A stretch of 64,000 bases of DNA from Carcharhinus longimanus (GCA_030264375.1 JASCQW010000132.1:75193029-75257028); one strand, 5' to 3'; counted from the stretch's first letter, positions 4,688-64,000 are shown. Program-made: numbers and translations. The notes: generated by a model from the sequence alone, not told the origin.

Positions 4688-5235
4688 AGGGGAGACGGTG
4701 AGGTAGTGGTTAATTGGGTTCAAATCATTGGTGAGCCAATGGTTAATTGGGTTCAAATCCCACTACAGTAGCTGCTGGAATCTTTTTTAAATTCATTTGT
4801 GGGACATGGGTGTCACTTGCTGGCCAGCATCTATTGTCCATCCCTAGTTGCCCTCAGAGGGCAATTGAGAGTCAACTGTGGCTCTAGAGTCACAAGTGGG
4901 CCAGAGCAGGTAAGGATGTCAGATTTCCTTCCCTAAAAGGACATTAGTGAACCAGATGGGAGGACACTAGTGAACCAATTAAATTAGTTGAAAGCTAGTT
5001 TCAGTAATGGTGATCATGAAACTATCACTCAAAATGATAAAAACCCTTCTAGCTCACTAATGTCCTTTACAATAGGGAATCTCCTGCCTCTGCCCAGGCT
5101 GGCCTCTTTGACTCCAGACCCACGACAATGTGATTGACCCTTAACTGCCCTTTGACATTCAGTTCAGGGGTAGCTACAGATGGGCAATAAAGGCAGGCCT
5201 TGCCAGTGGTGCTCATATCCCCGAAGAAATAAAGG
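4688..5235 (+). mobile_element. tRNA-headed SINE (same family as 20724-21084) with an inverted 3' fragment of the same SINE nested at about 4783-4975
   Basis: Head ggggagacggtgaggtagtgg...gggttcaaatccc; body ctcactaatgtccttt...gactccagacccac; tail gatgggcaataaaggcagg; the inner segment matches the reverse complement of body and tail. Confidence 0.75.
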
Positions 5236-6280
5236 AACAAACACTTACTTTATTTTTAAGTGTTTAATATATTTCAGCCTTTATTTTAACTGGGACAAAG
5301 ATACAGAAAGGAAAACAGCAACTGAGGTATCTCCAGGGCAACATGTTCCATTGACGTTGTACGAAATACTGAGCCATTAATTATTAGTCAAGCCAGATAT
5401 AAATGCAAAGATAAAGTCATGACAATAGTGCTGTATGAATCACTCCTAATTAATTACAAGAAAATTAAGAAATAAGCAGGCAGGGAAGGAAAAGATGCCA
5501 CCATAGTTCGCTATCAGACAGCTCCCTCTGTGCATTTTTCTCTAGATTAATTAATTCTGATTGTGAGAAAAAGGAAGCTGATCCAGGTGGCAATATTAAA
5601 GTTTCCCGATGACCTTATATTTGTGCAAACATGCTTCCTTTTACCATTTTGGGACTGCACAAAATGTTGGCAACACGAGGGACACACTTAGGTTTGTAGA
5701 ACAAATCATTTAGATCATTATAGTTTAAATATGAAAAACCCAAATACTAAGTCCAGATAAAATATGTTGCTATTTAAGATTCTCTCTCTTTCTGGCAATG
5801 TGAAATGAAATGGTCGCATGGCCAACCATGTAGAAGATTGAACTATTTTCCAAAGGGCTTATAGTTTCGGTAATAACCAAAAGGCACCAAAAAAACCCAA
5901 AGGCTGGGAAATGTCTCGCAGCTGCTCGCTTTTTGATGACTTCCTGCAGCCAAAGTCATACATTTCCCAGCCAGAGTCAGAAATATTCAGCAGCTGTTTA
6001 CATTTTAGTTCGACAACAGTGAAATTGCAACACGTGGAACTAGAATGATATAAAATTCCGGTCACATCAAAGTCATCAACCAATCCTGCAAACAGAATAG
6101 ATAATCCCACTGAGGGATGCCCATGATAAACTGAAATTCCACACCTCCAGATTAACCAAACATGCCTAAACTTGACATATGACTGCAGTGACCAATCATT
6201 CAAACAGCCCGCCCACCTGCTCCTCTAGCCAATGATGCAATGATAGAATCCCTGCAGTCCAGGAATTGAACCTGGGTCAA

Positions 6281-6514
6281 ATCATAGAAACCCTACAGCA
6301 CAGAAAAGGCCATTTGGCCCATCGAGTCTGCACCGACCCATAATCCCACCCAGGCCTACCCCCATATCCCGACATATTTACCCACTAATCCCTCTAATCT
6401 ATGCATCTCAGGACACTAAGGACAATTTTAGCATGGCCTATCAACCTAATCTGCACATCTTTGGACTGTGGGAGGAAACCGGAGCACCCAGAGGAAACCC
6501 ACACAGACACGAGG
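6281..6514 (-). mobile_element. HE1-type (V-SINE) shark SINE, truncated by an assembly gap
   Basis: Reverse complement contains gggtttcctctgggtgctccggtttcctcccacagtccaaagatgtgcagattaggttg and the CR1-derived tail gggccaaatggcc...ctgtagggtttctatgat. Confidence 0.9.
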
Positions 6515-12793: not shown

Positions 12794-13340
12794 ATGTATT
12801 TCCAGGTCAGGATGGTGTGTGGCTTGGAAGGAGGACCTGCAGGTAGATAGTGCTGCTCCCATTCATCTGGTGCCCTTGTTCTTCTAACTTGTGGAGTTCC
12901 TGGGTTTTGAAGGTGCTGTGGGAAGGAGCCTTGGTGCGTTGCTGCAGTGTATCTTGTAGATGGTACACACTGCTGTCATTGCAAGTGTAAAGTTGCTATA
13001 ATCCCAGAGAACTATAGGCTGCTCTCCCCCTCGAAAGGCAAGAGAGCTGGCTGATACTGGTTTAACCTGAGGATCACTACACCTCAGGTGAGGGGCAAGG
13101 TTGAGCCTTCATGAATAACCTCAGATGGTAGGAAAGNNNNNNNNNNCATGCTGTTGGCGCTGTCCTTCATTAGTAATCAGCTGCCCACTCGACTGAGTGA
13201 AACCTTTACAACAATGGTGGAGATAGTGAATGTTGAAAGTGGTGGAAGGCATGCCAATCAACTTGGCTACTTTGTTCTGAATGGTATCTAGCTTCCTGAG
13301 TGTTGTTGGAACTGCACTCACTCAGGCAAGTGGACACAGT
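12794..13340 (-). mobile_element. 3' fragment of the same LINE family as 60243-63476, interrupted by another tRNA-derived SINE (about 12985-13205, minus)
   Basis: ORF 13121-13321 (MSAVPTTLRKLDTIQNKVAKLIGMPSTTFNIHYLHH) matches the minus-strand translation around 60620-60730; the insert has a tRNA-like head and body gaggttattcatgaagg...cctgaggtgtagtgatcctcaggttaaacc. Confidence 0.75.
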
Positions 13341-20723: not shown

Positions 20724-21084
20724 TTTATTTTTATTCATTGGTGGGTGTCGCTGGCTGACCAGCATTTATTGTCCTGGCCAGCATTAGTTGCCTGAGGGCA
20801 GTTGAGAGTCAACCACATTGCTGTAGCTTTGGAATCACATGTATACCAGAACTGGGAAGGATAGCAGATTTCCTTCCCTAAAGGATATTAGTGAACCAGA
20901 TGGGTTTTTCCAACAATTGACAATGGTTTCATGGTCATCAGTAGACTCTTAATTCCAGATTTTGTTTATTGAATTCAAATTCCACAATCTGCTTTGATGG
21001 GATTCAAATCTGGGTGCCCAGAACATTAGCTGAGTTTCTGGATTAATAGTCTAGCAAAAATACCACTGGGCCATCACCTCCCCC
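20724..21084 (-). mobile_element. Full-length tRNA-headed SINE (head+tail derivative of the 60243-63476 LINE)
   Basis: Minus strand begins ggggaggtgatggcccagtgg (A box) with a degenerate B box; the body closely matches 63195-63476 and is joined directly to the tail caataaatgctggtcagccagcgacacccaccaatgaataaa seen at 60243-60300. Confidence 0.9.
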
Positions 21085-22765
21085 TAAAGGCAGAGCATCG
21101 TATGCACCATCCATGGCTAGCCGAGGAAGTTAAAGATAGCATCAAATTGAAAGAAAAAGCATTCATTACTGTAACAATTTATGATAGCTCAGAAGTTTAA
21201 ACAGATTTTAGAAATCAGCAAGGGATTACTGAAAAAGATAAAAAGTGATGAATTAGAGTATGAATTTAATCTAGCCAGAAACGTAAAACAGACAGTAAGA
21301 GTTTCTATCAGCATTTAAAAAGAAAAAGAATAACTAACATAAGTGTTGGTCTGTTAGAGGGTGAGACTGAGAGATTAATCATGAGAATGGCAGAAATGGT
21401 GGAGTGTTGAACAGGCATTTTGCGCCTGTTGTCACTGAAGACATATAAAAGAAATCCAAAGGAGACCTGAAAATCAAGAGACACAAGGTGATGAAGGAGA
21501 AATTTAAAACATGCACAATCACTGGGAAAAGGTATTGGGGCAATTATTAGAACTAAAAGTTGACAAGTCTCTGGACCTGATGGCTTTCCTAGGATTTTAA
21601 AAGAAGTTGCTGCAAAGATAGTAGATGCATTGATGGTGACCTTGCAAAATTCTCTCAATTCTGGGAAGGTCCCAATGGATTTGAAAATTGTTTCTCGATT
21701 CAAGAAATGAGGGAGACTGAAACAGAAAATATGAAACTACAGGCCAGTTAACCTGAACTCTATAATAAGAAAAATGCTAGAATGAATTATTACAGATGTA
21801 AAAATAGGACATTCAGAAAATAATAAAATTTGGCAGAGTCAACATGGTTTTGTAAAAGAGAAATCACATTTAAGTAATTTGTGGATAAAGGGGAATCTGT
21901 TGATGTGGTGCACTTGGATTTTCAAAAGGTAGTTGTCAAGGTCCCACAACAAAGGTTACTTTACAAAATAAGAGTTTATGGTGCAGGGGTAACATTTTAG
22001 CATGGCTAGTGGATTGGTTAGCAAATAGGAAATAGAGAGTAGGGATAAGTAGATCATTTTCAGGCTGGTAAACTGTTACTAGCAGAATGCCACAGAAATC
22101 AGTATTGGGGCCTCAACTACTTATAATCTATATCAATGATGTGATGAAGGGATGAAATGTATGGTTGTTAAATTTGCTGATGACACAAAGACAGGTAGGA
22201 AAGTAAACTATCAAGAGAACATAATGAATCCACAGAGGGATTAAAAAAGGTTAAATGAGTGGGTAAGAATTTGGCAGATGGAGTATAATGCGGGAAAATG
22301 TAAACTTGTCTGCTTTGGCAGGAAGAATAGAAAAGAAGCATATTTTTTAAACGAAGAGAGACTACAGAGCTGAATTGTACAGAGGGATCTGAGTGTCTTA
22401 GTACATGAATCACAAAATGTTGGTATGCAGGTATATCAAAGTGACTAGGAAAGTAAATGGAATGTTAATGTTTTTTGCAAGAGCAATCAAGTATAAAAGT
22501 GTTACTATAGTATACAGGGCATTGGGTGAGATCACATCTGGAGTAACATGCACCATTTTGGTCACTTATTTCAGAAAGGATGTAAGTGCATTAGAAGCAG
22601 TTCAGAGAAATTTCAGACTAATTCCTGGAGTGCAGGCTTATCTTCTGAGGAAAGGTAGAAATGGAGCCTATACTCTTTGGAGGTGATCTTAGTGAAACAT
22701 ACAAGTTCCTCAGGGGACTTGACAGGGCAACAGGGTCACAGTTCAAAAATTAGGGGTCTGTCATT

Positions 22766-23090
22766 TAGAATCATAGAATCCCTACAGTGCAGAGAGGGAC
22801 CATTCAGCCCATAGAGCCTACACTGACAACAATCCCACCCAAACCCTATTCCCATAATCCCATGTTTACCATTCTAATCTCCTTGACACTAAGGGGAAAT
22901 TTAGCATGGCCAATCAACCTAACTGGCACATCTTTGAATTGTGGGAGGAAACAGCAACACCCAGAAGAAACCCACACAGACATGGGGAGAAAGTGCAAAC
23001 TACACAGAGAGTTACTCAAGGCCAGAATTGAACCCGGGTCCCTGGCGTTATGAGGCAGCAGTGATAAACACTGTCCCAACGTGCTGCCCA
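22766..23090 (-). mobile_element. HE1-type SINE inserted in CR1
   Basis: Reverse complement: gggcagcacgttgggacagtgtttatcactgctgcctca...gacccgggttcaattc...ctgtagggattctatgattct. Confidence 0.9.
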
Positions 23091-23283
23091 TTAAGATTGA
23101 GTAAAGTAGAAATTTTTTCACTCAAAAGGGTTGCCAGTCAAAGTAATTCTCTTCCCCTGGGAGCAGTGGAGATGAGGTCATTGAACATGTCCAAGACTGA
23201 GTTAGATAGATTTTTGATTAGAAAGGATGTCAAGGGTTATGAGGTGGATATGCAAGCATTGGACTGGAGTAAACACAGTAAGA

Positions 23284-23530
23284 ACTCTGTGTGGAGTCTG
23301 CACATTCTCCTCGTGTCTGTGTGGGTTTCCCCCGGGTCCTCCGGTTTCCTCTCAGTCCAAAGATGTGCAGATTAGGTTGATTGGCCATGCTAAGATTGCC
23401 CCTTAGTGTCCTGGGATGTGTAGGTTAGAGGGATTAGAGGGTAAATATGTAGGGATACGGGGGCAGGGCCTGGGTGGGATTGTGGTCGCTGCAGACTTGA
23501 TGGGCCGAAGGGCCTGTTTCTGCACTGAGG
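23284..23530 (+). mobile_element. 5'-truncated HE1-type SINE flanked by Penelope terminal-repeat fragments
   Basis: ctctgtgtggagtctgcacattctcc...gggccgaagggcctgtttctgcactg; flanked by ttggactggagtaaacacagtaagaa (left) and cctggtgttgtgagacttctta (right). Confidence 0.8.
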
Positions 23531-28855: not shown

Positions 28856-31381
28856 TTTGAAAGCTCGATGTGCTTCAGTTTTGGATATGGCAACATACCA
28901 GTGTCTTTTAAGAAAGAGTGTCTTCCCTTGTCTTTTCATCAGTACAGGTGTGTTTTCTAGTGACCTACCTCTATGTTAAGTTGATCTTTGATGAAAATTG
29001 CACAGATGACGCTAGACATTAAGAATGAAGGAGCGACCATGTGTGGAAACACTGTAGAACTATATTTTACTAGGTTGGGCCATTACTGCCTGCCGTTAAG
29101 GAAGCCTGAAATTTCTCATCAAAGAATTCAAGTTGTCCTGTTAACATCCGGGAATAAGAATTTGGTGGACCAAAAAAATGATGATTTGAAAGTTGCATGG
29201 ACAGTTTCCACATTCTGTGCCACAAGAACAGAAGGTATTACTGCGAGATACTGGAGTGCTTGATAAAGAATGTGACAATCTTATTCAGCAAGTCACCTTT
29301 CGATAAGAAGTTTATATCAAATATCAAGAGAAACCACCACATCTGCTTGTGAGTTTAATACTAGCCAGGGAACTTAATGGTGCAGTGGCAATGGATTTAA
29401 ACATATGGGACAAAGTTGGGGTTTTTCTTTGTTACGCTGTTTGGTTATGGTGACTGGATTTAGCATATTCACTGTAATACATGGCAAACACAAATGGACC
29501 ACTGTCAATCAGGTCATGAAGAAAAGGGTGGTCAGGATGAGGAACACCAACAGAACTGTGTTGGTGGGGAATTTGCCAATGGGGAATTTCATTGTCATGC
29601 ACACTGTGGCTGAGAGCCCATTCAGTAATGGTATGTGCAAGAGAAACCATGCAGTGATAGATGACATGTTACATAAAATATTGGCTGATCAACCAGACTG
29701 TAAATTGCAAACGGTGCTTGAATGGGCAGTACATGCAAAGAACTCTTTGCAAATAGTTGGGGGGTTCAGTCTGTACCAGTTGGTGCACAGCAGGAATCTG
29801 AGATTGCCTTTGGTCTCATCAGATGCTCCCCCTGCTCCAGAAAATACTGGCATTAGCTTTACTTATTCTGCTTACATGAATGCCTTCATGCAAGCAGAAA
29901 GGATTTTGTCAAAGTTGAGGTTTTGGAGAAAATTCAGAGTACCTTAGAGCCAATGAGAGTACAGTTTAGACAGGGAAACCTGGTATATTACAAAAGAGAA
30001 GGGCAGAAAGAATGGAAAGGTCCTGGCAAAATGATTGGCAGTGAAGGAAAAGCAGTAATTGTACAATACAGAAATCAAACTGTTAAGGCTCATTATTTGA
30101 TCCGAATTAACACTGACTATATTTTTACAGGTTTGGAACAAGGCTCAGAGAGTGAAGGGGTCTCATGCACTTTACATTTGTACATCTTGGGCAATTATCA
30201 GAAGCCAACATCAGCACATAGAGAATTGATCGTCAATGAATGAAGTAAAACTGAAGTGCAGGATAAGGCTTTTATTCAAAAGGACAAGTATTTAAAGTAG
30301 GAACAAAAGTAGCATATATGCCAGAAAAACCCAGTGTGGGTAAGGATGCCATTATCAGAGGAAGAACAGGAAAACCAATTGGGAAATATAAACATTGGTT
30401 AACGTGGAGGAGGAAGGTCAGGAGATAGGACTTGTGCATTGGAAAAATGATGCAAGGATGTGGAAGGCCAGAAAGCACATTGTAAGTTCTGACAGTGAAC
30501 CAGAAAAAGGTTGTGATAGCAGGAAAAGAGCATGAAATTGCAATCAGGCCTCTGATCCAATGCGGGAAAGGTTGTGTACCCATAGTACAGAAAGAGAGAA
30601 AGGGATAAGTAGAGTTTGGACTTTGGCAAGAAAAAGAAACCATGGAACAAACTAGGAACGTTACTGGAAGCAGAAGCCCTCAAGATAGAGAGATTGTAGT
30701 GGCTACTAATAAATTTGGAAGATAGCTGATAAAGGAAGCAAAACAAAGAATTGGAAAGTATTTTGACTGTATACCAAAATACCAGCCAGCCTCATCACAT
30801 AGGCACATCAAAGCTAAAGCAAAAGCAAAACTGGAAGCTCAGGGTTTTGTGGAGAGACCTGGAGATCAAGATGTCAGGGTGGACTCCCCAACTACAGGGA
30901 ATGTAAGCTTGAAGTTTATTTTTAGCCACTTTAGCAACATACTCCTGAGAGTGCAAATTGATAGATATAAAAGCTGCATTTTTTGCAGGGGGAGAAATTT
31001 CAAAGGGAAATATTTTTGAAACTAATTAAAGAAGCTGCTGATACAGAAGGAAAATTGTGGAAATTAAACAAGTATGTTTATGGACTGAATGCTGCACCAA
31101 GAGTATAGTATATTTCCATCAGGTTGGTCTTATTGAAAACAGTTTTCCAGACCCTGTGATGTGTAATTGGCGTAACAAGATAGGTTAGCAGGAATCTTTA
31201 TTATGTATGTGGATGGTTTTCTGTGGGGAGGTTCAGTCGAATTTGAGCAATGGGTGATTGATAAAATCATGAAGGAATTCAAGATTGGAAATCAGGCTTC
31301 AGGGGCCTTTCATTACATAGGTTTAAACATTAAGCAAAACAAATCAGAAATGACATTGAAGCAACAATCTCATTGAGAAAG

Positions 31382-31540
31382 TTAGGTGAACTGGCCGTGC
31401 TAAATTGCCCCTTGTCAGGGGGACTAGCTAGGGTAAATGCATGGGGTTATGGAGATAGGGCCTGGGTGGGATTGTAATCATTGCAGACGCAATGGGCCAA
31501 ATGACCTCCTTCTGCACAGTGGGATTCTATGAATTCTACG
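31382..31540 (+). mobile_element. HE1-type SINE 3' fragment nested in the copia RT
   Basis: ttaggtgaactggccgtgctaaattgcccc...gggccaaatgacctccttctgcacagtgggattctatga. Confidence 0.85.
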
Positions 31541-31799
31541 AAAAAAGTGTTAGTCGCATTCCAAAAAATTGGGTCAGGTCTTCACAAAAAAGGTTCCACA
31601 GTCCAAGGAAGAAACAGATCAATAGAGAGGTTTATCTGGACAGTTGAACTGGCTGTGCATTCAGAATAGGTCTGATGCTAGTTATGACATGTTGGAGCTG
31701 AGTACTATGATGAAACACACTACGTGGATATGCTGGGGTAAACACAGTAAAAAGTCTGACAACGCCAGATTTTAGTCCAACCGATTTATTTGATAGTAA

Positions 31800-31841
31800 A
31801 CTCACTAGTTTTCAAGGGGATTCCCTCTTCTTCAGGTGAGT
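31800..31841 (-). ncRNA. Minimal type I hammerhead ribozyme motif (Penelope-associated)
   Basis: ACUCAC-CUGAAGA-AGAGGGAAUCCCCUU-GAAA-AC-UA-GUGAGU: stem I ACUCAC/GUGAGU, core CUGANGA and GAAA, stem II AGGG/CCCU. Confidence 0.7.
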
Positions 31842-32073
31842 GGAGAGTTCTGGCCTCAGACAGAGCATATAAAGCACAGACAGTTTACAGATTACTGATT
31901 AGAATGCGAATCTTTACNNNNNNNNNNNNNNNNNNNNNNNNNNNNNNNNNNNNNNNNNNNNNNNNNNNNNNNNNNNNNNNNNNNNNNNNNNNNNNNNNNN
32001 NNNNNNNNNNNNNNNNNCAGTAATCTCTAAACTGTCTGTGCTTTATATGCTCTGTCTGAGGCCAGAACTCTCC

Positions 32074-32115
32074 ATTCACCTGACGAAGAGGGAATCCCCT
32101 TGAAAGCTAGTGAGT
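32074..32115 (+). ncRNA. Minimal type I hammerhead ribozyme motif (Penelope-associated)
   Basis: AUUCAC-CUGACGA-AGAGGGAAUCCCCUU-GAAA-GC-UA-GUGAGU: stem I AUUCAC/GUGAGU, intact core, palindromic AGCU replacing helix III, predicted cleavage 3' of A32109. Confidence 0.8.
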
Positions 32116-32964
32116 TTACTATCAAATAAATCAGTTGGACTAAAATCTGGTGTTGTCAGACTTTTTACTGTGAAACACACTACAGCAGAGGAAGTTCTGA
32201 GAACAAACAAAACATTGAAGAAATTACATTTTGAGAAATGCACGCTCAAGTTTCCAGCCTTGGGTGAACAAGATGATTTGAGGTTGGTCATTCTTAGCAA
32301 TGCTTCATGTGTTGTTCTTCCAAATGGATATTCTAGCACAGCACAGTTTAATCTCATTGGCTTGAGAAGCCAAGAAAATCAAATGGGTAACGAACAGCAA
32401 CTTAGTGGCTGAAACATTGGCATTAGTAGAAGCATATTGTGTGTGTGTTGCAGGGGGGGGAAACCTACTGATCCAATATATTGACAAACACACTATACAA
32501 AGGGAACAATGAGAAAAGTTTGCCGATCACTTGCTACCCTAACAATCGATCCCTCCAGGGAAACGTCCGCTCAGTGAAAAGCAGAGCTGAAAAAAAAGCT
32601 AAGAATAGGCCTGGCTAGCATGAAAGAAATGCTATACAAGGGAGATCTCTATGCTACGATGGGTAGCCAGAATTCACCATTTTTCAGACTATTTAATGAA
32701 AAGAAACGCCTGCTCCAAGAAATTGTTAAATTTATTGTAAGAGGGGCATCATATGCTATAATGGAAAATTGAATGTTTGCTTTGTAATTATGTGTATATA
32801 CAAAAGGTGGTCATGGGAATATGAGATCTACAATGTTGAAGCACATAACCTTGTTTCTGTTTTTCTTTAAATGTGTCCTTGAATTTATTTTTTTTCTTAA
32901 GCTATATGCCAGTATATCAGCAATTGCATCCATTGGCAAATACATTGTTAAGCCAATTGAATTC

Positions 32965-35649: not shown

Positions 35650-35955
35650 CCACCTGGCACAGTGGTTAGTATTGCTACCTCACAGTGCCAGAAATCCAGC
35701 CTTGGGTGTCCATGTGAAGTTTGCATACTCTCCCTGTGTCTGTGTGCGTTTTCTCCGACAGCCCAAAGTTGTGCGGATTAGGTGGACTGGCTATTCTAAA
35801 TTGCCCTTTACTGTTCCAAAATGTGTAGGTTTGGTGGATTAGCAGGGTAAATGTGTGGAGTTATGGGGATAAGGTAAGGAAGAGGGCCTGAATAAGAGAA
35901 TTGGTGCAAACTTGATGAGTCTGATGGCCTCTTCTGTGCTGTAGGATTCTATGTT
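35650..35955 (+). mobile_element. HE1-type SINE
   Basis: tggcacagtggttagtattgctacctcacagtgccag...gatggcctcttctgtgctgtaggattctatg. Confidence 0.85.
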
Positions 35956-37387
35956 TACGTCTCCCACCTTACGGAAGAGCCCATTCCCCACCCGAACCTG
36001 CCTAATCCCAGATTCCAGTTTTCCTTCTGTTTTCCCTCTAACAAGCTTCAGTGTTTCTTCAACCATCATCGTAGGACTCACTCTGCCACACTACTGGCTC
36101 CCACGGCTTCCTCTAATCTTATCATCCTTTCCTATAAACAATTTCCTCAGAAAGCCCATCAGGGCTCATCCATTGATCCATAAACCTCCCTCTGAATCCT
36201 CTTCCCTTCTTCGTCCCCCCTCCCAGCCCTCCCTTCACAATTGCACACCCCCTCCATGCCTGTTCACCCCACTCACTCCACCATGGCCCTTCTTACCATA
36301 CCACCTCATCCATTCCAAAATCCTTGCAGCATTTCTTTCACCTACCTCCCTCACCCCTCTTGTTAGGCCTCCACACCCATCCCACCTCTACAATCCTTTC
36401 CTCCATGTCTAATCCCCCCACCACCCTGCACAGACCATTGCTGCGAGGCAGTATCTTATGCAGCTATCCGCCAGCAGTGAGAAGAGATTCACATCCTGAA
36501 AGTTCCTGTACTGTACTGAAACAGTAAAGGATTCACGAGGCTGATGCTTCACTCAGCCACTGTTGCTCATGGTGTTCCAGGGTACACAGTTACTGGAAGC
36601 CTCTGTCTTCCAATCTTTACAAGTTGCCCAGGCTTTCTTCCAGGTGAGTCCTGATGGTGTCCACACCATGTTGGTCCAGACCGGCGGAATATCCCACTGA
36701 TGGTTGGCAACGTAAATTGGTCCACACCAACCTTTGGGAGTGATGCCCGCCATGAGAGCACAAGTTCCAGCCATCATTCCACATTGGCAGGAAACCATTT
36801 TTTCAACTCCCACCACATCGTTGGCCCCACATCCCATCCTCCCAACCTCCCGATTAAACCTGTTGCTGTTCAAACTGGAAAATGCTAGCCAATGAGTATG
36901 TCAGGGATACAGGCTGAAATGATTCAATCCCATTTCTCCCAAGTTAGCTGATTTCACTGTGGGAGATGAGAACACTGTTACAATGTGCTATCTTTCCTCT
37001 GGGCTCATGGGAGGAAATTCAGATAGGGTTCCTTAGTCTGACATTCAATAACCCACACTGGATATGAGCACTTGTGGATGTGATGATGGGCCAGAATCAG
37101 GCTCTGCCATGATTCCCCACACAGTTAAATAGCCTGTTAATTTTCAACAGCCAAACTTTCACATAAACATGGACACTTTGCAGAGTGGTAGGAGAGCACC
37201 GTAAAACTGTACATTGCAAAGAATGAACATCCTCTGCAGAGGAGGATACAGGAAAGTAAACAAACAGGAAAAGAATAGAACACTGCTTGATATGTTTGAA
37301 AGTAAAAAATTTTGAGAAAATGGTAAGTATAAATTATATATTTGCAATGATTGAAGGACATGTAGAGTTTTTTCTAATCGTGTTACA

Positions 37388-43649: not shown

Positions 43650-45005
43650 TCAACTTCAAGAAGATGACCATCATCCCGGTACCAAAGAAAAGCCAGGCAG
43701 TGTGCTTTAATGACTATCATCCGGTGGCTCCGACATCCATCATTATGAAGTGCTTTGAAAGGTTGGTCATGGCATGAATCAATTCCATGCTCCCAGATTG
43801 CCTGAATCCACTACAGTTCACCTACTGCCGCAATAGGGCCACAGCAGATGCCATCTCTCTGGCCCCACACTCAACCCTGAATACCTAGATAACAAGGACA
43901 CCTATGTCAGACTCCGATTTATTGACTTTACTTCAGCCCTCAACACCATTATTCCTATGAAACTCATCTCCAAACTCTATGGCCTGGAACTCGGGTCCTC
44001 CCTCTGTGACTGGATCCTGAACTCCCTAACCCACAGACCAAAATCAGTAAGAATAGGCAATACCATCTTCTCCACAATCAATCATTCTCAACACTGGTGC
44101 CCGACAAGGTTGTGTTCTCAGCCCCCTACTATATCCACCTATGAGTGTGTGGCCAAATTCCCCTCCAACTCAATTATGAAGCTTGCTGACAACACCACAG
44201 TAGTGGGTTAGATCTCAAACAATGATGAGACACAGCTCAGGTGAACTGGTGCAACGACAATAATCTCTCCCTCAATGTCAACAAAATGAAGGAGATAGTC
44301 ATCAACTTCAGGAAGCATAGTGGAGGCCATGCTCTTGTCTATATAATGAGGATGAAGTGGAAATGGTTGAGAACTTCAGGTCTCTGGGTGTTCAGATCAC
44401 CAACAACCTGTCCTAGTCCCCCCATGCTGATACTATTGTTAAGAAAGCCCACCAACACCTTTACTTTCTCAGAAGACTAAGGAAACTTGGCATGTCCGCT
44501 ATAACTCTCACCAACTTTTACAGATGCACCATAGAAAGTATTCTTTCTGGTTGTACCAGAGCTTGGTATGGCTCCTGCTCTGTCCAAGACAGCGAAAAAA
44601 CTACAAAGGATTGTGGATGAAGCCCAGTCCATCACTGAAACTAGTCTTCCACCCATTGACACTGTCTACACTTTCCACTGCCTCAGCAAGGTAGCCAGCA
44701 TAACTAAGGACCCCACACACTCCGGACATATTCTTTTCCAGCTTCTTCTGTTTGGAAAAAGATACAAAAGTCTGAGATCACATACCAACCAACTCAAAAA
44801 CAACTTCTTCCCTACTGCCATCAGACTTTTGAATGGACCTACCTCATATTAAGTGATCTTTTTCTACACCCTAGCTATGACTATAACACTGTGTTCTGCA
44901 CTTTCTCCTTTCCTTCTCTAGATACGGTATGCTTTGTCTGTATAGCATGCAAGAAACAATACTTTTCACTGTATAATAATACATGTGACAATAATAAATC
45001 AAATG
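43650..45005 (+). mobile_element. Rex1/Babar-type LINE, RT region to 3' tail (decayed)
   Basis: [105 protein letters not shown]; tail aataaatcaaat. Confidence 0.9.
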
Positions 45006-46249: not shown

Positions 46250-46552
46250 CTTTTGGTTAAAGTTTGTTTATTAGTGTCACCAATGCAGTGTTAATGTAAG
46301 CTTATTTAAGTTAATGTGAAAATTCCCCAGTCGCCACGCTCCAGCAGCTTTTCAGGTACACTGAGGGGGAATTTAGTATGACCAATGCATCTAACTAGTA
46401 CATCTTTCAGTGTATGAGAGAAAAAACAGTACACTCAGAGAAACCCCATGCAGGCATGGGGAGAACGTGCAGACTCCCCCCAGTGACCCAATCTGAGAAT
46501 CGAATTTGGGTCCCTGGTACTGTGAAGTAGCAGTGCTAAATACTGTGCCACC
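46250..46552 (-). mobile_element. V-SINE with alternative tail (same type as 16060)
   Basis: Minus head tggtggcacagtatttagcactgctacttcacagtaccagggacccaaattcgattc; tail ggcgactggggaattttcac...gacactaataaac. Confidence 0.85.
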
Positions 46553-46591
46553 ATTCCCTCCTGGACAGGAAATTAACGGAGGCAAGCCAAG

Positions 46592-46925
46592 TGGGCGGCA
46601 TGGTAGCACAGTGGGTAGCACTGCTGCTTCACAGCTCCAGAGACCTGGGTTTGATTCCTGGTTTGGGTCACTGTCTGTGTGGAGTTTGCACATTCTCCTC
46701 ATGTCTGCATGGGTTTCCTCCGGGTGCTCCGGTTTCTTCCAACAGTCCAAACATGTGCGGGCTAGGTTGATTGGCCATGTTAAAATTGCCCTTAGTGTCC
46801 AGAGATGCATAGATTAGAGAGATGAGTGGGTAAATATGTAGGGATACGAGGATAGGGCCTGGGTGGGTTTGAGATTGGTGCAGACTTAATGGGCCGAATG
46901 GCCTCTTTCTGTACTGTAGGATTTT
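46592..46925 (+). mobile_element. HE1-type SINE, near full length
   Basis: gggcggcatggtagcacagtgggtagcactgctgcttcacagc...gggccgaatggcctctttctgtactgtaggattt. Confidence 0.93.
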
Positions 46926-47274
46926 TAGGTTCAAACCTAACATGCTTTATCAGGTAGAATGAGCAGCCAACTTGTGATAGTTCCTGCAGTCCAAAGCTAT
47001 CACTCAGCATCAGTCTTTCCTGCAGCCCCCTCACTGACCATTCAAGTTGCAATTTCCCTCCCTAACCCTTCAACTCACTCCTTCTTCCTCTCACCTCTTT
47101 CCTGTTTGCTGCTTCCTTCCTGGCCACCCCAGGAGAGGTAATGGGCAGGAGGGCTAGGGAGGATAGTGGCAAGTCAGGAAAGGTGACAAACTGGATGCAA
47201 AAGCAATGAGTTGGAGATAAGTTAAAAGTCAATAATAGTTGTTAAGTTATTAAGAGTCAGTCAGATGGGTCCAT

Positions 47275-49003: not shown

Positions 49004-49029
49004 ACCAACAACACAACTCATATTAGCTG

Positions 49030-49380
49030 ACTTATTATTTTCACATATATTGGGATACAGTGAACAGTTTTGTTTTGTGCACACTAGACAAAGTATACCA
49101 TTCAGAGGGTACATAGGGGAGAAGGAAAGGCGAGGGTGCAGAATATAATGTTACAGTCATAGCTAGGGAGTAGAGAAAGATTAGCTTAATCTAAGGTAGG
49201 TTCATTCAAAAGTTTAATGGTAGCAGGGAAGAACAGGTTCTTGAGTTGGTCGGTACGTGACCTCAGAATTCTGTATCTTTTTCCTGATGAAAGAAGGTGG
49301 AAGGGACATGTCCAGGGCATATGGCCTCCTTGATTATACTGGCTGCTTTTCCAAGGCAGCAGGAAGTGTAGATGGACTGC
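49030..49380 (-). mobile_element. Rex1-type LINE 3' fragment
   Basis: Reverse-complement match to 44650-44990 (GKRYRILRSRTDQLKNLFFPATIKLLNEP). Confidence 0.88.
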
Positions 49381-50388: not shown

Positions 50389-50790
50389 GGGTGGCTTGGC
50401 GGCACAGTGGTTAGCACTGCTGCCTCACAGCTCCAGGGGCCCAGGTTCAATTCCGGCCTTGGGTGAAGTTTGCATATTCTCCCAGAACCCAAGTCTGCGT
50501 GGGTTTCCTCCCACAATCCAAAAATGTGCAGATTAGGTGGATTGGCCATGCTAAATTGCCCTTTAGTGTCCAAAGATGCCCAGACTGGGTGGATTCGCCA
50601 TAGGAAATGTGTGTGGTTATGTGGCTAGGGCAGGATAATGTGGATTATGTGACTTAAACCTGGTGTTGTCAGGCTTCTTACTCAGTTATGTCGATAGGGC
50701 AGAGGAGAGGGCCCAAGTAAGACACTGTGTCACCAGAGTTGGTGTAGATTTGATGGGCCAAATGGCCTCTTCTGCACTGTTGGGATATTG
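50389..50790 (+). mobile_element. HE1-type SINE with a short internal Penelope-repeat fragment
   Basis: ggcggcacagtggttagcactgctgcctcacagctccaggggcccaggttcaattcc...; aaacctggtgttgtcaggcttcttac at about 50656-50681. Confidence 0.88.
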
Positions 50791-57989: not shown

Positions 57990-58320
57990 GGGGGAGGCAT
58001 GGTGGCACAATGGTTAGCACTGCTGGCTCACAGCACAAGAGCCCCGGGTTCAATTCCAGCCTTGGGTCAATGTCTGTATGGAGTTTGCACATTCTCCCTG
58101 TGTCTGCATGGGTTTCCTCCAGGTGCTCCCGTTTACTTTCGCAGTCCAAAGATGTGCAGGTTAGTTGGATTGGTCATGCTAAATTTCCCCTTAGTGTCAG
58201 AAAGACTAGCTAGGGTTATTGCATAGGTTTATGGGGATAGGGCCTGGGAGGAATTGTGGTCGGTGCAGACTCAATGCACTGAATGGCTTCCTTCTGTACT
58301 GTAGGCATTCTATGATTCTA
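57990..58320 (+). mobile_element. HE1-type SINE
   Basis: ggcatggtggcacaatggttagcactgctggctcacagc...ctgtaggcattctatgattctat. Confidence 0.92.
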
Positions 58321-60242: not shown

Positions 60243-63200
60243 TTATTCATTTGCGGGACATGGGCGTCGCTGGTTAGCCAGCATTTATTGCCCATCCCTA
60301 CTGACCCTTGAGAAGGTGGTGATGAGCTACCTTCTTGAATCGCTGCAGTCCATATTCTGTGGGCTGACCCACAGCACCGTAAGAGGGGGAAGTCGAGGAT
60401 TTTGGCCCAGCGACTGTGAAGGAATGGCGGTATATTTCCAAGTCAGGATGATGAGTGGCTTGGAGAGGAATTTGCAGGTGGTGGTGTTCTCATGTATCTG
60501 CTGCCCTTGTCCCTTTAGACAGAAGTGGTTGTGGGTTTGGAAGATGCTGTCTAAGGATCTTTGGTGAATTGCTGCAGTGCATCTTGTAGATAGTACACAT
60601 TCCTGCGACTGAACATCAATGGTGGAAAGACTGAATGTTTGCAGATATGGTGCCAGTCAAGAAGGCTGCTTTGTCCTGGATAGTGTCAAGCTTCTTGAGT
60701 GTTGTTTGAGCTGCACCCATCCAGGCAAGCGGGAGTATCACACCCCTGACTTGTGCCTTGTAGATGGTGGATAGGCTTTGGGGAGTCAGGAGTTGAGTTA
60801 CTTATCACAGTATTCCTAGCCTCTGACCTGCTCTTGCAGCCATTGTGTTTATGTGGTGAGTCCAGTTGAGTTTCTGGTCAATGGTATCCCAAGGATGTTG
60901 ACACTGGGGGATTCAGTGATGGTTACACCATTGAATGTCAAGTGTTAGAGTGTTTCTTATTGGTGATGGTCATTGCCTGGCATTTATGTGGCACAAATGT
61001 TACTTGCCACTTGTCAGCCCAAGTCTGATATTGTCCAGATCTTGTTGCATTTGAACATGGGCTGCTTCAGCATCTGAGGAGTCGCGTATGTGCTGAACAT
61101 TATGCAATTATCGGTGAACATCCTCACTTCTAACCTTATAATGGAGGGAAGGTCATTGATGGGTCAGGTGAAGATTGTTTGGTCTAGGACACTACCCCAA
61201 GGGACTCCTTCAGAGATGTTCTGGATTTGAGATGACAGACTCTCCACAACCACTACCATCTTCCTATGGACCAGGTATGACTCCAACCAGCGGAGAGTTT
61301 GCCCCCGATACCCATTGATTCCAGTTTCACTAGGATTCCTTGATGTCACATTCAGTCGAATGCGGACTTGATGTCAAGGACTGTCACTCTCACCTCATCT
61401 CTGGAATTCAGCTCATTTGTCCATGTTTGAACCAAGGCTGTAATGAGGTCAGCAGCTGAGTGACCCTGGTGAAACCCAAACTGGGCGTCGCTGAGCAGGT
61501 TATTGCTGAGCAGGCGCTGCTTGATAGCATTGTTGATGATCCTTCCATCACTTTACTGATGATCAAGAGTAGACTGATTGGGCGGTAATTGGCCAGGTTA
61601 GATTTGCCTTGCTTTTTGTGTACAGGACATACCTGGACAATTTTCCACTTGGTTGTGTAGACGCCAGTGTTGTAACTATACTGGGAGAGTTTGGCTAGAG
61701 GAGCAGCAAGTTCTGGAGCATAAGTCTTCAGTGCTATTGCTGGAATGTTATGAGGGCCCATTGCCTTTGCAGTATCCAGTACCTCCAACTATTTCTTGAT
61801 ATCAGATGGAGTGAATCGAATTGGCTGGAAACTGGCATCTGAGATGCTGGGGACCACTGGAGGAGGCCAAGATGGATCAGCCACTCGGCACTTCTGGCTA
61901 AAGATTACTGCAAATACTTCAGCCTTTTCTTCTGCACTGATGTATTGGGCTCCTTCATCATTGAGGATGGGATATTTGTGGAGCCTCCTCCTCCACTGAG
62001 TTGTTTGATTGTCCACCACTATTCTCGACTGGATGTGGCAGGACTGCAGAGCTTAGATGTGATCCATGGTTATGGTATCACTTAGCTCTGTCTATCACAT
62101 GCTGTTTTTGCCATTTGGCATGCAAGTAGCTTCACAAGAAGCTTTTGTAGCTTTGCCAGGTTGACACCTCATTTTCAGATATGCCCTAGTGCTGCTCCTG
62201 GCATACCTCCTCCACTCTCCATTGAACCAGGGTTGATCCCCTGGCCTGATGGTAACGGTTGAGTGGGGGAATATGCCAGACCATGAAGTTACAGATTGTG
62301 CTGGAGTACAATTCGGCTGCTGTTGATGGCCCACAGCGCCTCATGGATGCCCAGTCTTGAGTTGCTAGATTGGTTCAAAGTCTATCCTATTTAGCACGGT
62401 GATAGTGCCGCACAACAGAATGGAGGTTACTCTCAATATGAAGGCAGGGACTTTGTCTCCGCAAGGACTGTGCGGTGCTCAGTCTTACTGATACTATCAT
62501 GGACAGATGCTCTGCAGCTGGCAGATTGGCAAGGATGAGGTAAAGGATGTTATTTCCTTTTGTTGGTTCCTTCATCACCTGCTGCAGACCCAGCCTAGAT
62601 TGATTCGATCAGTAGTGCTGCTGCCAAGTCACTCTTGGTGGTGGACATTGAAATTCCCCACTCAGAGTACATTCTGTGCTCTTGTCACCCTCAGTGTTTC
62701 TTCCAAGTGTTGTTCTACATGGGGGAAATAGTGACTCATCAGCCAAAGGAGGATGGTACATGGTAACCAGGAAGAGGTTACCTTATCCATGTTTAACCTG
62801 AAGCCATGAGACTTCATGGGGTCTGGAGTTGATGTTAAGGACTCCCAGGGCAACTCCCTCCCAACTGTATACCACTGTGCCAGCACCTCAGCTGGGTCTG
62901 TCCTGTTGGTGGCACAGACATATCCAGGGGTGGTAATGATGGTGTCTGGTTTGTTATCTGTAAGGTACGATTCTGTGAGAATGACTATGTCAGGCTGTTG
63001 CTAGACTAGTCTGTGAGACAGCTCTCCCAATTTTGGCACTAGCCCCCAGATGTTAGGAAGGAGGACTTTGCAGGGTCAACAGTGCTCTTTGTTTTACCGT
63101 TGTCTTTTCCAGTGCTTAGGTTGATGCCAGGTGCTCCGTCCGGTTTCATTTCTTTGTTGAGACTTTGTAGCCAATGTTACAATTGAGGCTGTTTCAGAGG

Positions 63201-63476
63201 GCAGTTGAGAGTCAACCACATTGCTGTGGCTTTGGAGTCACATGTAGGCCAGACCAGGTAAGGACAGCAGATTTCCTTCTCTAAAGGACATTAGTGAGCC
63301 AGATGGGTTTTTCCAACAATCAATTATGGTTTCATGGTCATCAGTAGCCTCTTAATTCCAGATATTTTTTATTGAATTCAAATTCCACCATCAGCCATGA
63401 TGGGATTCGAACCCAGGTCCCCAGAGCATTCTGGATGAGTAGTTGAGTGATAATACCACTAGGCCATCACCTCCCC
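60243..63476 (-). mobile_element. Apparently full-length single-ORF non-LTR retrotransposon (APE endonuclease + RT, CR1/L2/Jockey group) with a tRNA-like 5' head; ORF decayed
   Basis: 5' ggggaggtga-TGGCCTAGTGG...GGTTCGAATCC. APE: NIWGLVPKLGELSHRL..QPDIVILTESYL, GNFNVHHQEWLGS, KEPTKGNNIL. RT: LDTAKAMGPHNIP..KTYAPELAAPLAKL..ANYRPISLL, QFGFHQGHS, LDIKSAFD, GVPWGSVL, INDLP..MFTDN. 3' tail gatgggcaataaatgctgg...gaataa; candidate TSD TACTT(A/G)AAA. Confidence 0.88.
63403..63466 (-). promoter_or_regulatory. Type 2 RNA polymerase III internal promoter (A box 63466-63456, B box 63413-63403)
   Basis: TGGCCTAGTGG fits TRGCNNARYGG; GGTTCGAATCC is a perfect B-box consensus; the spacing is tRNA-like. Confidence 0.8.
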
Positions 63477-63724: not shown

Positions 63725-64000
63725 GACAGCACGGTTGCTAGCACTGCTGCCTCAAACTGAGAGACTTGTGTTCAATTCCAGCCTCAGGTGACTGTGTGGA
63801 GTCTGCATGTTCTCCCGGTCTCTGCATGGGTTTCCTCCCACAGTCCAAAGGTGTGTGGGTTAGGTAGATCGGACATGCTAAATTGAACATTAATGCCATG
63901 AGGATTAGCAGAGTAAATATGTGGGGTTACAGGGATAGGGCGTGTGAGATTGTAGTCGGTGCAGATTTGCTGGGCCAAATGGCCTCCTTCTGCTCTATAG
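63725..64000 (+). mobile_element. HE1-type SINE
   Basis: gacagcacggttgctagcactgctgcctca...gggtttcctcccacagtccaaagg...gggccaaatggcctccttctgc. Confidence 0.9.

Follow-up and report, generated by a model that had tools for sequence, protein, structure and literature searches.

A long interspersed nuclear element (LINE) that occupies positions 60243-63476 on the minus strand of a 64,000-nt stretch of Carcharhinus longimanus DNA (hereafter the window, meaning that whole stretch) is, judged by its sequence, an elasmobranch Zenon LINE, one copy of a family that has already been published (PMC13343379). What is new here is that this family combines a tRNA-type head, bearing the internal promoter boxes of RNA polymerase III (Pol III), with an avoidance of Pol III terminators on its sense strand, and together these features provide strong indirect evidence that the family was transcribed by Pol III. 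There is strong evidence for family-level selection against Pol III terminators, and this selection reaches codon choice. Comparisons with the published Zenon consensuses were made by eye, and statements on the literature refer to the accessible parts of the cited papers. The parts of the element, together with a short interspersed nuclear element (SINE) from the same window, are as follows.

60243..63476, minus strand: full-length, decayed elasmobranch Zenon-type LINE with tRNA head, leader, single endonuclease-reverse transcriptase (EN-RT) frame and A-rich tail
63456..63466, minus strand: Pol III A box, element positions 11-21 (placed by sequence and by position in the family majority)
63403..63413, minus strand: Pol III B box (placed by sequence)
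63197..63476, minus strand: 5' module (~290 nt in the majority), common to the short tRNA SINE of the genome
63039..63149, minus strand: 36-codon upstream open reading frame (uORF) from a conserved AUG, out of the EN-RT frame and stopping within the start of the endonuclease domain
60298..63069, minus strand: endonuclease and reverse transcriptase coding region, broken here; a 979-codon open frame in the family majority
60243..60307, minus strand: 3' tail (~65 nt), common to the SINE and normally followed by an A-run
60242-60234, minus strand: run of nine T (T9) adjoining the 3' tail of this copy, where it would terminate Pol III (read from the sequence)
20735..21083 (lower end approximate), minus strand: short SINE copy, LINE head joined to tail (from comparison with the family majorities)

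Terminator avoidance in the family

An earlier sequence-only reading of the window had claimed that the sense strand of this copy is free of runs of four T (T4), and the count bears this out, as AAAA occurs zero times on the plus strand between 60243 and 63476, where AAA runs number 14. The dozen or so T4+ runs that it had reported on the plus strand amount to 13, all seven of its named positions being correct, and the element lies in a 3,766-nt stretch without AAAA, the longest in the window (runner-up 1,269 nt). The same reading had stated that a CR1 and a copia element of the window carry sense-strand T4+ runs, which is the case for three of six RT-like fragments (8, 2 and 2 runs) and not for three short ones, which have none; the copia element was not located, 33 of the 53 listed frames of at least 100 codons having been scanned with no Pfam match. 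The T4 absence in this single copy is striking against base shuffles (6.5 expected, P0 = 0.0005) and borderline against dinucleotide shuffles (2.6 expected, P0 = 0.055), for which reason the single-copy statistics were dropped as sufficient proof. The copy is, moreover, decayed: it differs from the family majority at 7.3% of non-CpG sites, its coding region is interrupted by numerous stops and frameshifts, and it contains eight five-base windows with four T. The 3' boundary originally proposed, 60243, ends just short of the sense-strand T9, which is atypical of the family, since T4 lies within 3 nt of the end in 2 of 26 tails examined. When a T4-free master decays neutrally in simulation, its copies carry a mean of 1.25 T4 and 27% of them stay without one, near the observed density of 0.51/kb, and 4 of 14 LINE pieces longer than 2.5 kb lack T4, so that the window copy is typical of its family. 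One decayed copy is insufficient for the argument, and the test has to be made on the family.

An alignment of 95 pieces from 67 loci (144 kb; three short head-only pieces unjoined to a body were excluded) yielded a column majority of 3,288 nt with one 979-codon open frame, from which the copies have diverged by ~7% at non-CpG sites. In this majority T4 is absent, T3 occurs five times, four T never fall within five bases, and T3VT, TVT3 and T2VT2 are all missing; the majority is hence free of canonical and non-canonical internal terminators on the sense strand, as expected of a Pol III unit. The T-run result held when the loci were divided into two disjoint halves and when the window copy was removed, and the sense-strand T4 in the consensus that the sequence-only reading had named as counting against it was not found. 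Its premise that vertebrate Pol III terminates at four or more Ts is sound insofar as T4 is the minimal terminator, and simplified insofar as T6 or more is needed for full efficiency (PMC5725217) and the interrupted tracts T3VT, TVT3 and T2VT2 act as sub-optimal human terminators (Orioli et al., PMC3141230). Weak sites would accumulate over 3.3 kb, which offers a reason for an avoidance stricter than that of T4.

The depletion was assessed with 5,000 synonymous-codon shuffles of the 935 codons from the endonuclease start. Terminator sites, T4 and interrupted forms together, number 0 against 5.9-7.1 expected, a value reached in at most 3 of the 5,000 shuffles; windows with four T in five bases number 0 against 11.8 (none of the 5,000), windows with four T in six bases 5 against 36.2, and T3 runs 3 against 12.5 (P = 0.0003). 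Equivalent windows of A, C or G show no depletion, so the effect is T-specific. When the nulls were stratified for CpG and TpA the signal was kept (0 terminator sites against 5.9-6.1 expected, P <= 0.0006), which excludes a CpG/TpA artefact. The avoidance is visible at third codon positions, where T is used in 118 of 365 cases if the resulting run is one or two T and in 2 of 37 if it is three or more (Fisher P = 2.5e-4); runs of A, tested in the same way, show no effect, and phenylalanine is encoded by 2 TTT versus 16 TTC in the majority. T2V2T2, isolated TT, pyrimidine tracts and splice-like and donor-like motifs occur at the expected level, and AT-rich runs are not significantly depleted. 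One recurrent T4, present in 13 of 46 covering copies, was rejected as ancestral because it sits at TTTCG and fits CpG decay. The earlier interpretation is therefore supported in part: selection against Pol III terminators holds for the family, and beyond the case first made for it, on the full terminator set under codon-preserving and CpG-aware shuffles, but not on T4 alone, which falls short of significance, so that another of the outcomes named as refuting, a depletion not significant against shuffled controls, occurred in part.

Control LINEs point in the same direction. A CR1 family of the same genome (85 pieces, 96.5 kb) is age-matched, with 88.2% to its own majority versus 88.6% for the Zenon LINE, and similar in T content (0.220 versus 0.204); its majority has seven T4 and 21 terminator sites, where its own nulls expect 21-22. 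The copies carry T4 at 3.53/kb in CR1 versus 0.51/kb in the Zenon LINE, and pieces longer than 1 kb are T4-free in 0 of 47 and 26 of 55 cases, respectively. Among 80 metagenome loci found with Zenon-like proteins, 70 were kept (10 were dropped for lack of a 400-codon frame), and the open reading frames (ORFs) of all 70 have at least one T4 and at least eight terminator sites, with a median of 16.4/kb; extrapolated to T = 0.204, they predict ~15 terminator sites versus 0 in the Zenon majority. A and B boxes were detected in none of these 70 loci, many of which are 5'-incomplete, so that the absence of a head is not always assessable. An equal depletion in head-less relatives, likewise named beforehand as a refuting outcome, did not occur, since CR1 and the 70 metagenome LINEs are undepleted as a class. 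The depletion of sense-strand T clusters is accompanied by a low phenylalanine content of the protein, 1.9% versus at least 3.0% in the 70 metagenome controls, 3.9% in CR1 and at least 3.3% in 63 full-length relatives.

Head, leader and a SINE with the same ends

The tRNA-type head is the fixed 5' end of this LINE family. A 777-nt query spanning head and endonuclease gave 9,930 candidates, and in the best 40, selected by score, head and endonuclease-coding sequence are both covered in all 39 loci other than that of the window, 32 of them beginning no more than 17 nt from the 5' end; of 35 head-bearing copies, 26 have an alignment that starts at position 1-2. The junction is constant in all 39 loci and in seven published consensuses, and a chance insertion of a SINE beside a LINE was rejected on that ground. 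In the majority the A box lies at position 11 and the B box at 74, and both agree with the Pol III consensus (TRGCNNARYGG and GTTCRANNC), as in the heads of SINE2 elements, which are short, non-coding and non-autonomous, whereas the LINE measures 3.3 kb and has an EN-RT frame. The same head opens all seven elasmobranch Zenon consensuses, with an A-box-like 11-mer in 7/7, an intact B box in 6/7 and no T4 in the visible first 400 nt of any, and between shark, dogfish and ray the boxes vary inside the Pol III consensus and the spacer between them varies more; the two hagfish and one coelacanth Zenon consensuses are all without the head and show T4+ runs over the same 400 nt (PMC13343379). A search of the supplement of that paper with the B-box core returned seven matches, three at the 5' end in Zenon heads and four in unrelated L2/Rex1 rows. 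In Rfam the B box of the window copy weakly matches the T-arm of the tmRNA model (E = 0.19, short of the gathering score).

The head recurs in a 340-nt SINE of the same genome that consists of LINE positions 1-290 followed by about the last 65 nt, its majority being 94.5% identical to that of the LINE over positions 1-290, and the head-to-tail joint, which skips ~2.9 kb, is also present in contigs of three of the four runs examined. At a few head positions the SINE carries the state of a minority of LINE copies, which hints at descent from one LINE subfamily. As for the origin of the head, the head-less coelacanth and hagfish Zenons, together with the wide range reported for SacSINE1/LmeSINE1, suggest that the LINE may have captured an older SINE head.

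Several features support the assignment to Zenon. In PMC13343379, Zenon elements have a single ORF, no ORF1 and a poly(A) tail, the tail being present in all phyla; the majority has a single APE endonuclease and RT ORF behind a leader of only ~350 nt, no ORF1, and tails of which most (of 26) end in GAATAAAAA(n), the window copy being an exception. The first 400 nt of the window copy match the published elasmobranch consensuses and the lengths agree (PMC13343379), stop-free pieces of sister copies match Pfam PF14529 and PF00078 (endonuclease and RT), and the best BLAST matches of the protein are Zenon-like single-ORF elements. In a quick RT tree built without a named Zenon reference, the protein separates from shark CR1 (support 98), but its own node lies in an open fork. 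In a quick tree the RT elements nearest to the shark protein are two of the metagenome loci, L209 (59-1624) and L184 (1173-3020), with support 85. Of the 70 controls L209 is the poorest in T4 for its length (one in 522 codons) but is without its 5' end, and the sequence upstream of L184 looks bacterial, so L184 may be chimeric.

The family is large: a first-look search of the 2.68-Gb genome gave ~45,600 candidates, and the best of these, the window copy aside, share 79-84% identity with it. No younger or intact copy was found among 150 scored out of 79,009 candidates from an RT-side protein query or among 40 scored DNA candidates, and the family appears to be extinct in the C. longimanus genome. 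Intact frames are reported from some species in PMC13343379 (Table S3: 3/612, 1/1419 and 1/294). Ten near-complete copies yielded no convincing target-site duplications, Rfam gave no match above the gathering score within the element and detected no ribozyme family, and scans of viral contigs returned no loci.

Behind the head, the leader poses a problem of translation that the sequence-only reading, which had considered a possible cap-independent leader, overlooked. After an A-rich stretch there is a conserved AUG at element position 349, the ATG being retained in 39 of 46 copies, and its distance to the codon of the endonuclease Asn motif is 95 nt in 33 of 46 copies, which places it out of the EN-RT frame. 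The 36-codon uORF opened by this AUG overlaps the endonuclease start and stops within it, and the same AUG offset is present in the ray consensus (PMC13343379). In the family majority the endonuclease domain is not preceded by any in-frame AUG, the first in-frame methionine being codon 182, well past the Asn motif at codon 51, so that some non-standard initiation or recoding is needed. The sequence of the uORF is well conserved between the shark and ray consensuses and might therefore serve in initiation or recoding. Precedents are R2 and L1Tc, LINEs whose RNA lacks a cap and is probably translated through a 5' structure like an internal ribosome entry site (IRES-like; review PMC6765202).

Probable transcription by Pol III and its alternatives

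From head, frame and terminator avoidance, the master copies of the family were probably Pol III units, and their RNA probably served translation as well as reverse transcription. TFIIIC would have bound the internal A and B boxes, and Pol III would have initiated at position 1, read 3.3 kb end to end and terminated where the flank first offers a T tract, as Alu does. The same uncapped RNA would have served as mRNA, because intact frame and terminator avoidance are found in one sequence, which fits a protein acting on its own RNA. The least certain step would be a cap-independent start without an in-frame AUG, whether at a non-AUG codon, by reinitiation or by a frameshift that leaves the 36-codon uORF. 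The short SINE would retain only the promoter module and the tail recognised by the RT. We thus infer both Pol III transcription and cap-independent translation of the LINE. In evolutionary terms, we lean, with less assurance, towards a vertebrate LINE lineage that took a SINE-type Pol III promoter, recoded its whole 2.9-kb frame, in codons as well as amino acids, so as to lose all Pol III terminators, canonical and weak, and became an autonomous Pol III unit translated from uncapped RNA without an in-frame AUG, kept across sharks and rays.

Several observations weigh against this reading. T4 taken alone is not significantly depleted, with 0 versus 2.1 expected in the 935 codons (P = 0.09, synonymous shuffles) and P = 0.08-0.24 under codon or dinucleotide nulls, since only ~1.3-2 sites are expected, and each interrupted motif taken singly is only borderline (P = 0.04-0.17), as is the dinucleotide result for the single copy. 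The majority is itself a reconstruction, and of four refinement runs two kept the single frame and two retained one frameshift. With regard to controls, the vertebrate set consists of one LINE family, and the metagenome elements are all T-richer (0.235-0.36), come from unidentified hosts and are distant (best matches 30-38% identical), a few of them being mildly depleted themselves (4-of-5 windows, z down to -3.5, observed/expected never below 0.64). Head and terminator loss co-occur only once, in a single evolutionary origin. As to the promoter and leader, ARAGORN called no tRNA and no full cloverleaf in the head, only 11 of 34 decayed copies have both boxes passing a strict pattern, and the leader of the window copy folds no better than its shuffles (z = +0.9). 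Contigs of four presumed-RNA sets cover the whole family and are silent on strand, start, polymerase and cap.

The missing T runs could also be attributed to a T-poor sense strand and chance, with the head as an unrelated SINE that landed beside a LINE. The element is indeed T-poorer than all 70 controls, and the borderline dinucleotide value and the T4-only tests agree with such an account; however, the codon-preserving nulls hold composition constant and still reach the observed value in only 0-3 of 5,000 shuffles, the extrapolated controls predict terminator sites where there are none, and the constant junction speaks against a chance neighbour. This explanation is largely excluded, and we regard it as very improbable. 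It is unlikely, in turn, that RNA polymerase II (Pol II) made the LINE, from the head as a Pol II promoter or by host read-through, with clusters of U avoided for some other cause at the RNA level; they might pair with the poly(A) tail, act as U-rich signals for decay or processing, or make Pol II pause at T tracts. LINEs are generally taken as Pol II transcripts (PMC5786205), and a capped RNA would make translation easier. On the other hand, Zenon elements of all phyla have poly(A) (PMC13343379), yet the Zenon-like controls and the local CR1 show no T avoidance; pyrimidine tracts, donor-like sites and AT-rich runs show no significant depletion; the boxes of shark, dogfish and ray all conform to the Pol III consensus while the spacer varies (PMC13343379); and the absence of an in-frame AUG is left unexplained.

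Finally, labour might have been split, Pol III making the RNA that is copied and separate capped Pol II read-through transcripts supplying a protein that acts in trans. This would explain head and terminator avoidance equally well and avoid the problem of the cap, and the SINE with the same ends indicates that trans-mobilisation works. Purely trans action would, however, be expected to let the ORF decay or vanish as in the SINE, whereas the majority keeps its 979-codon frame, and unusual initiation would still be required before the endonuclease, so that we consider this arrangement quite unlikely.

Neighbouring repeats and known systems

The window holds further fragments of the family at 4807-5155 and 12797-13333 (two heads in opposite orientation and a LINE 3' part), and at 21500-22650, on the plus strand, an older RT-bearing LINE fragment with eight sense T4 runs, whose other genomic copies are 68-77% identical. 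About a dozen copies of another short repeat, which we take to be the shark HE1-type SINE, lie at 6280-6514, 22766-23527, 31381-31538, 35656-35956, 46358-46927, 50389-50630, 57992-58320 and 63728-64000, two of them forming an inverted pair at 46358-46798. A 155-nt inverted repeat at 31743-32172 is 96% identical, far closer than the other repeat pairs of the window, and a 350-nt inverted pair at 44665-45001 and 49028-49372 is 75% identical.

The division between LINEs and SINEs is one between protein-coding Pol II units and non-coding Pol III units, and Kojima 2018 (PMC5786205) treats LINEs as Pol II units and SINEs as non-coding and unable to encode protein. A natural 3.3-kb Pol III mRNA, if true, would break this rule: a polymerase usually limited to short non-coding RNAs would have made a protein-coding element, in effect an autonomous SINE, a long ORF could be recoded for Pol III read-through, and there would be a natural vertebrate leader for cap-independent, non-standard initiation. 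It would likewise offer a concrete route by which simple deletion can produce a SINE with both ends of its partner LINE, and the absence of windows with four T in five bases is a signature with which repeat libraries can be screened. The head may resemble that of SacSINE1 and the Deu-SINEs. No Pol III-transcribed or tRNA-headed autonomous LINE was found in the literature searched by title and abstract start, Repbase reports and subscription papers lying outside that scope.

The nearest known elements are the elasmobranch Zenons themselves (CarCar, RhiTyp, ScyCan and HypSab Zenon-1 and SquAca Zenon-1 to -3; Stuart et al. 2026, PMC13343379), which share the 5' 400 nt, the single EN-RT frame without ORF1 and the poly(A), five of the seven being 3,244-3,314 nt long versus 3,288 for the majority. 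The main text of that paper, in its searchable part, contains no occurrence of tRNA, polymerase III or promoter, and gives no description of the A/B-box head, of the avoidance of terminators or of the AUG lying out of frame. tRNA SINEs (SINE2; shark SacSINE1-type Deu-SINEs, PMC5499810, PMC4824008) likewise have an A/B-box head, a body, a LINE-type tail and no internal terminator, but are non-coding and non-autonomous, whereas this LINE encodes EN-RT; the tail of SacSINE1 is reported to be common to L2-2_CM, whereas the SINE described here has both ends in common with the Zenon LINE. Bipartite derivatives such as RIME, NARTc, Bov-A and Persaeus (PMC5786205, PMC6740152) also consist of the 5' and 3' ends of a partner LINE, and Persaeus derives from a lepidopteran Zenon, without tRNA homology or a Pol III promoter; in these systems a small-RNA head, where present, belongs to the SINE only, whereas here the autonomous LINE itself carries it. 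R2 and L1Tc (PMC6765202) are autonomous non-LTR elements with uncapped RNA that is putatively translated through an IRES-like 5' structure, the polymerase of R2 not being Pol II. R2 is a Pol I co-transcript freed by a ribozyme like that of hepatitis delta virus, whereas this LINE has a Pol III-type promoter of its own and no detected ribozyme family.

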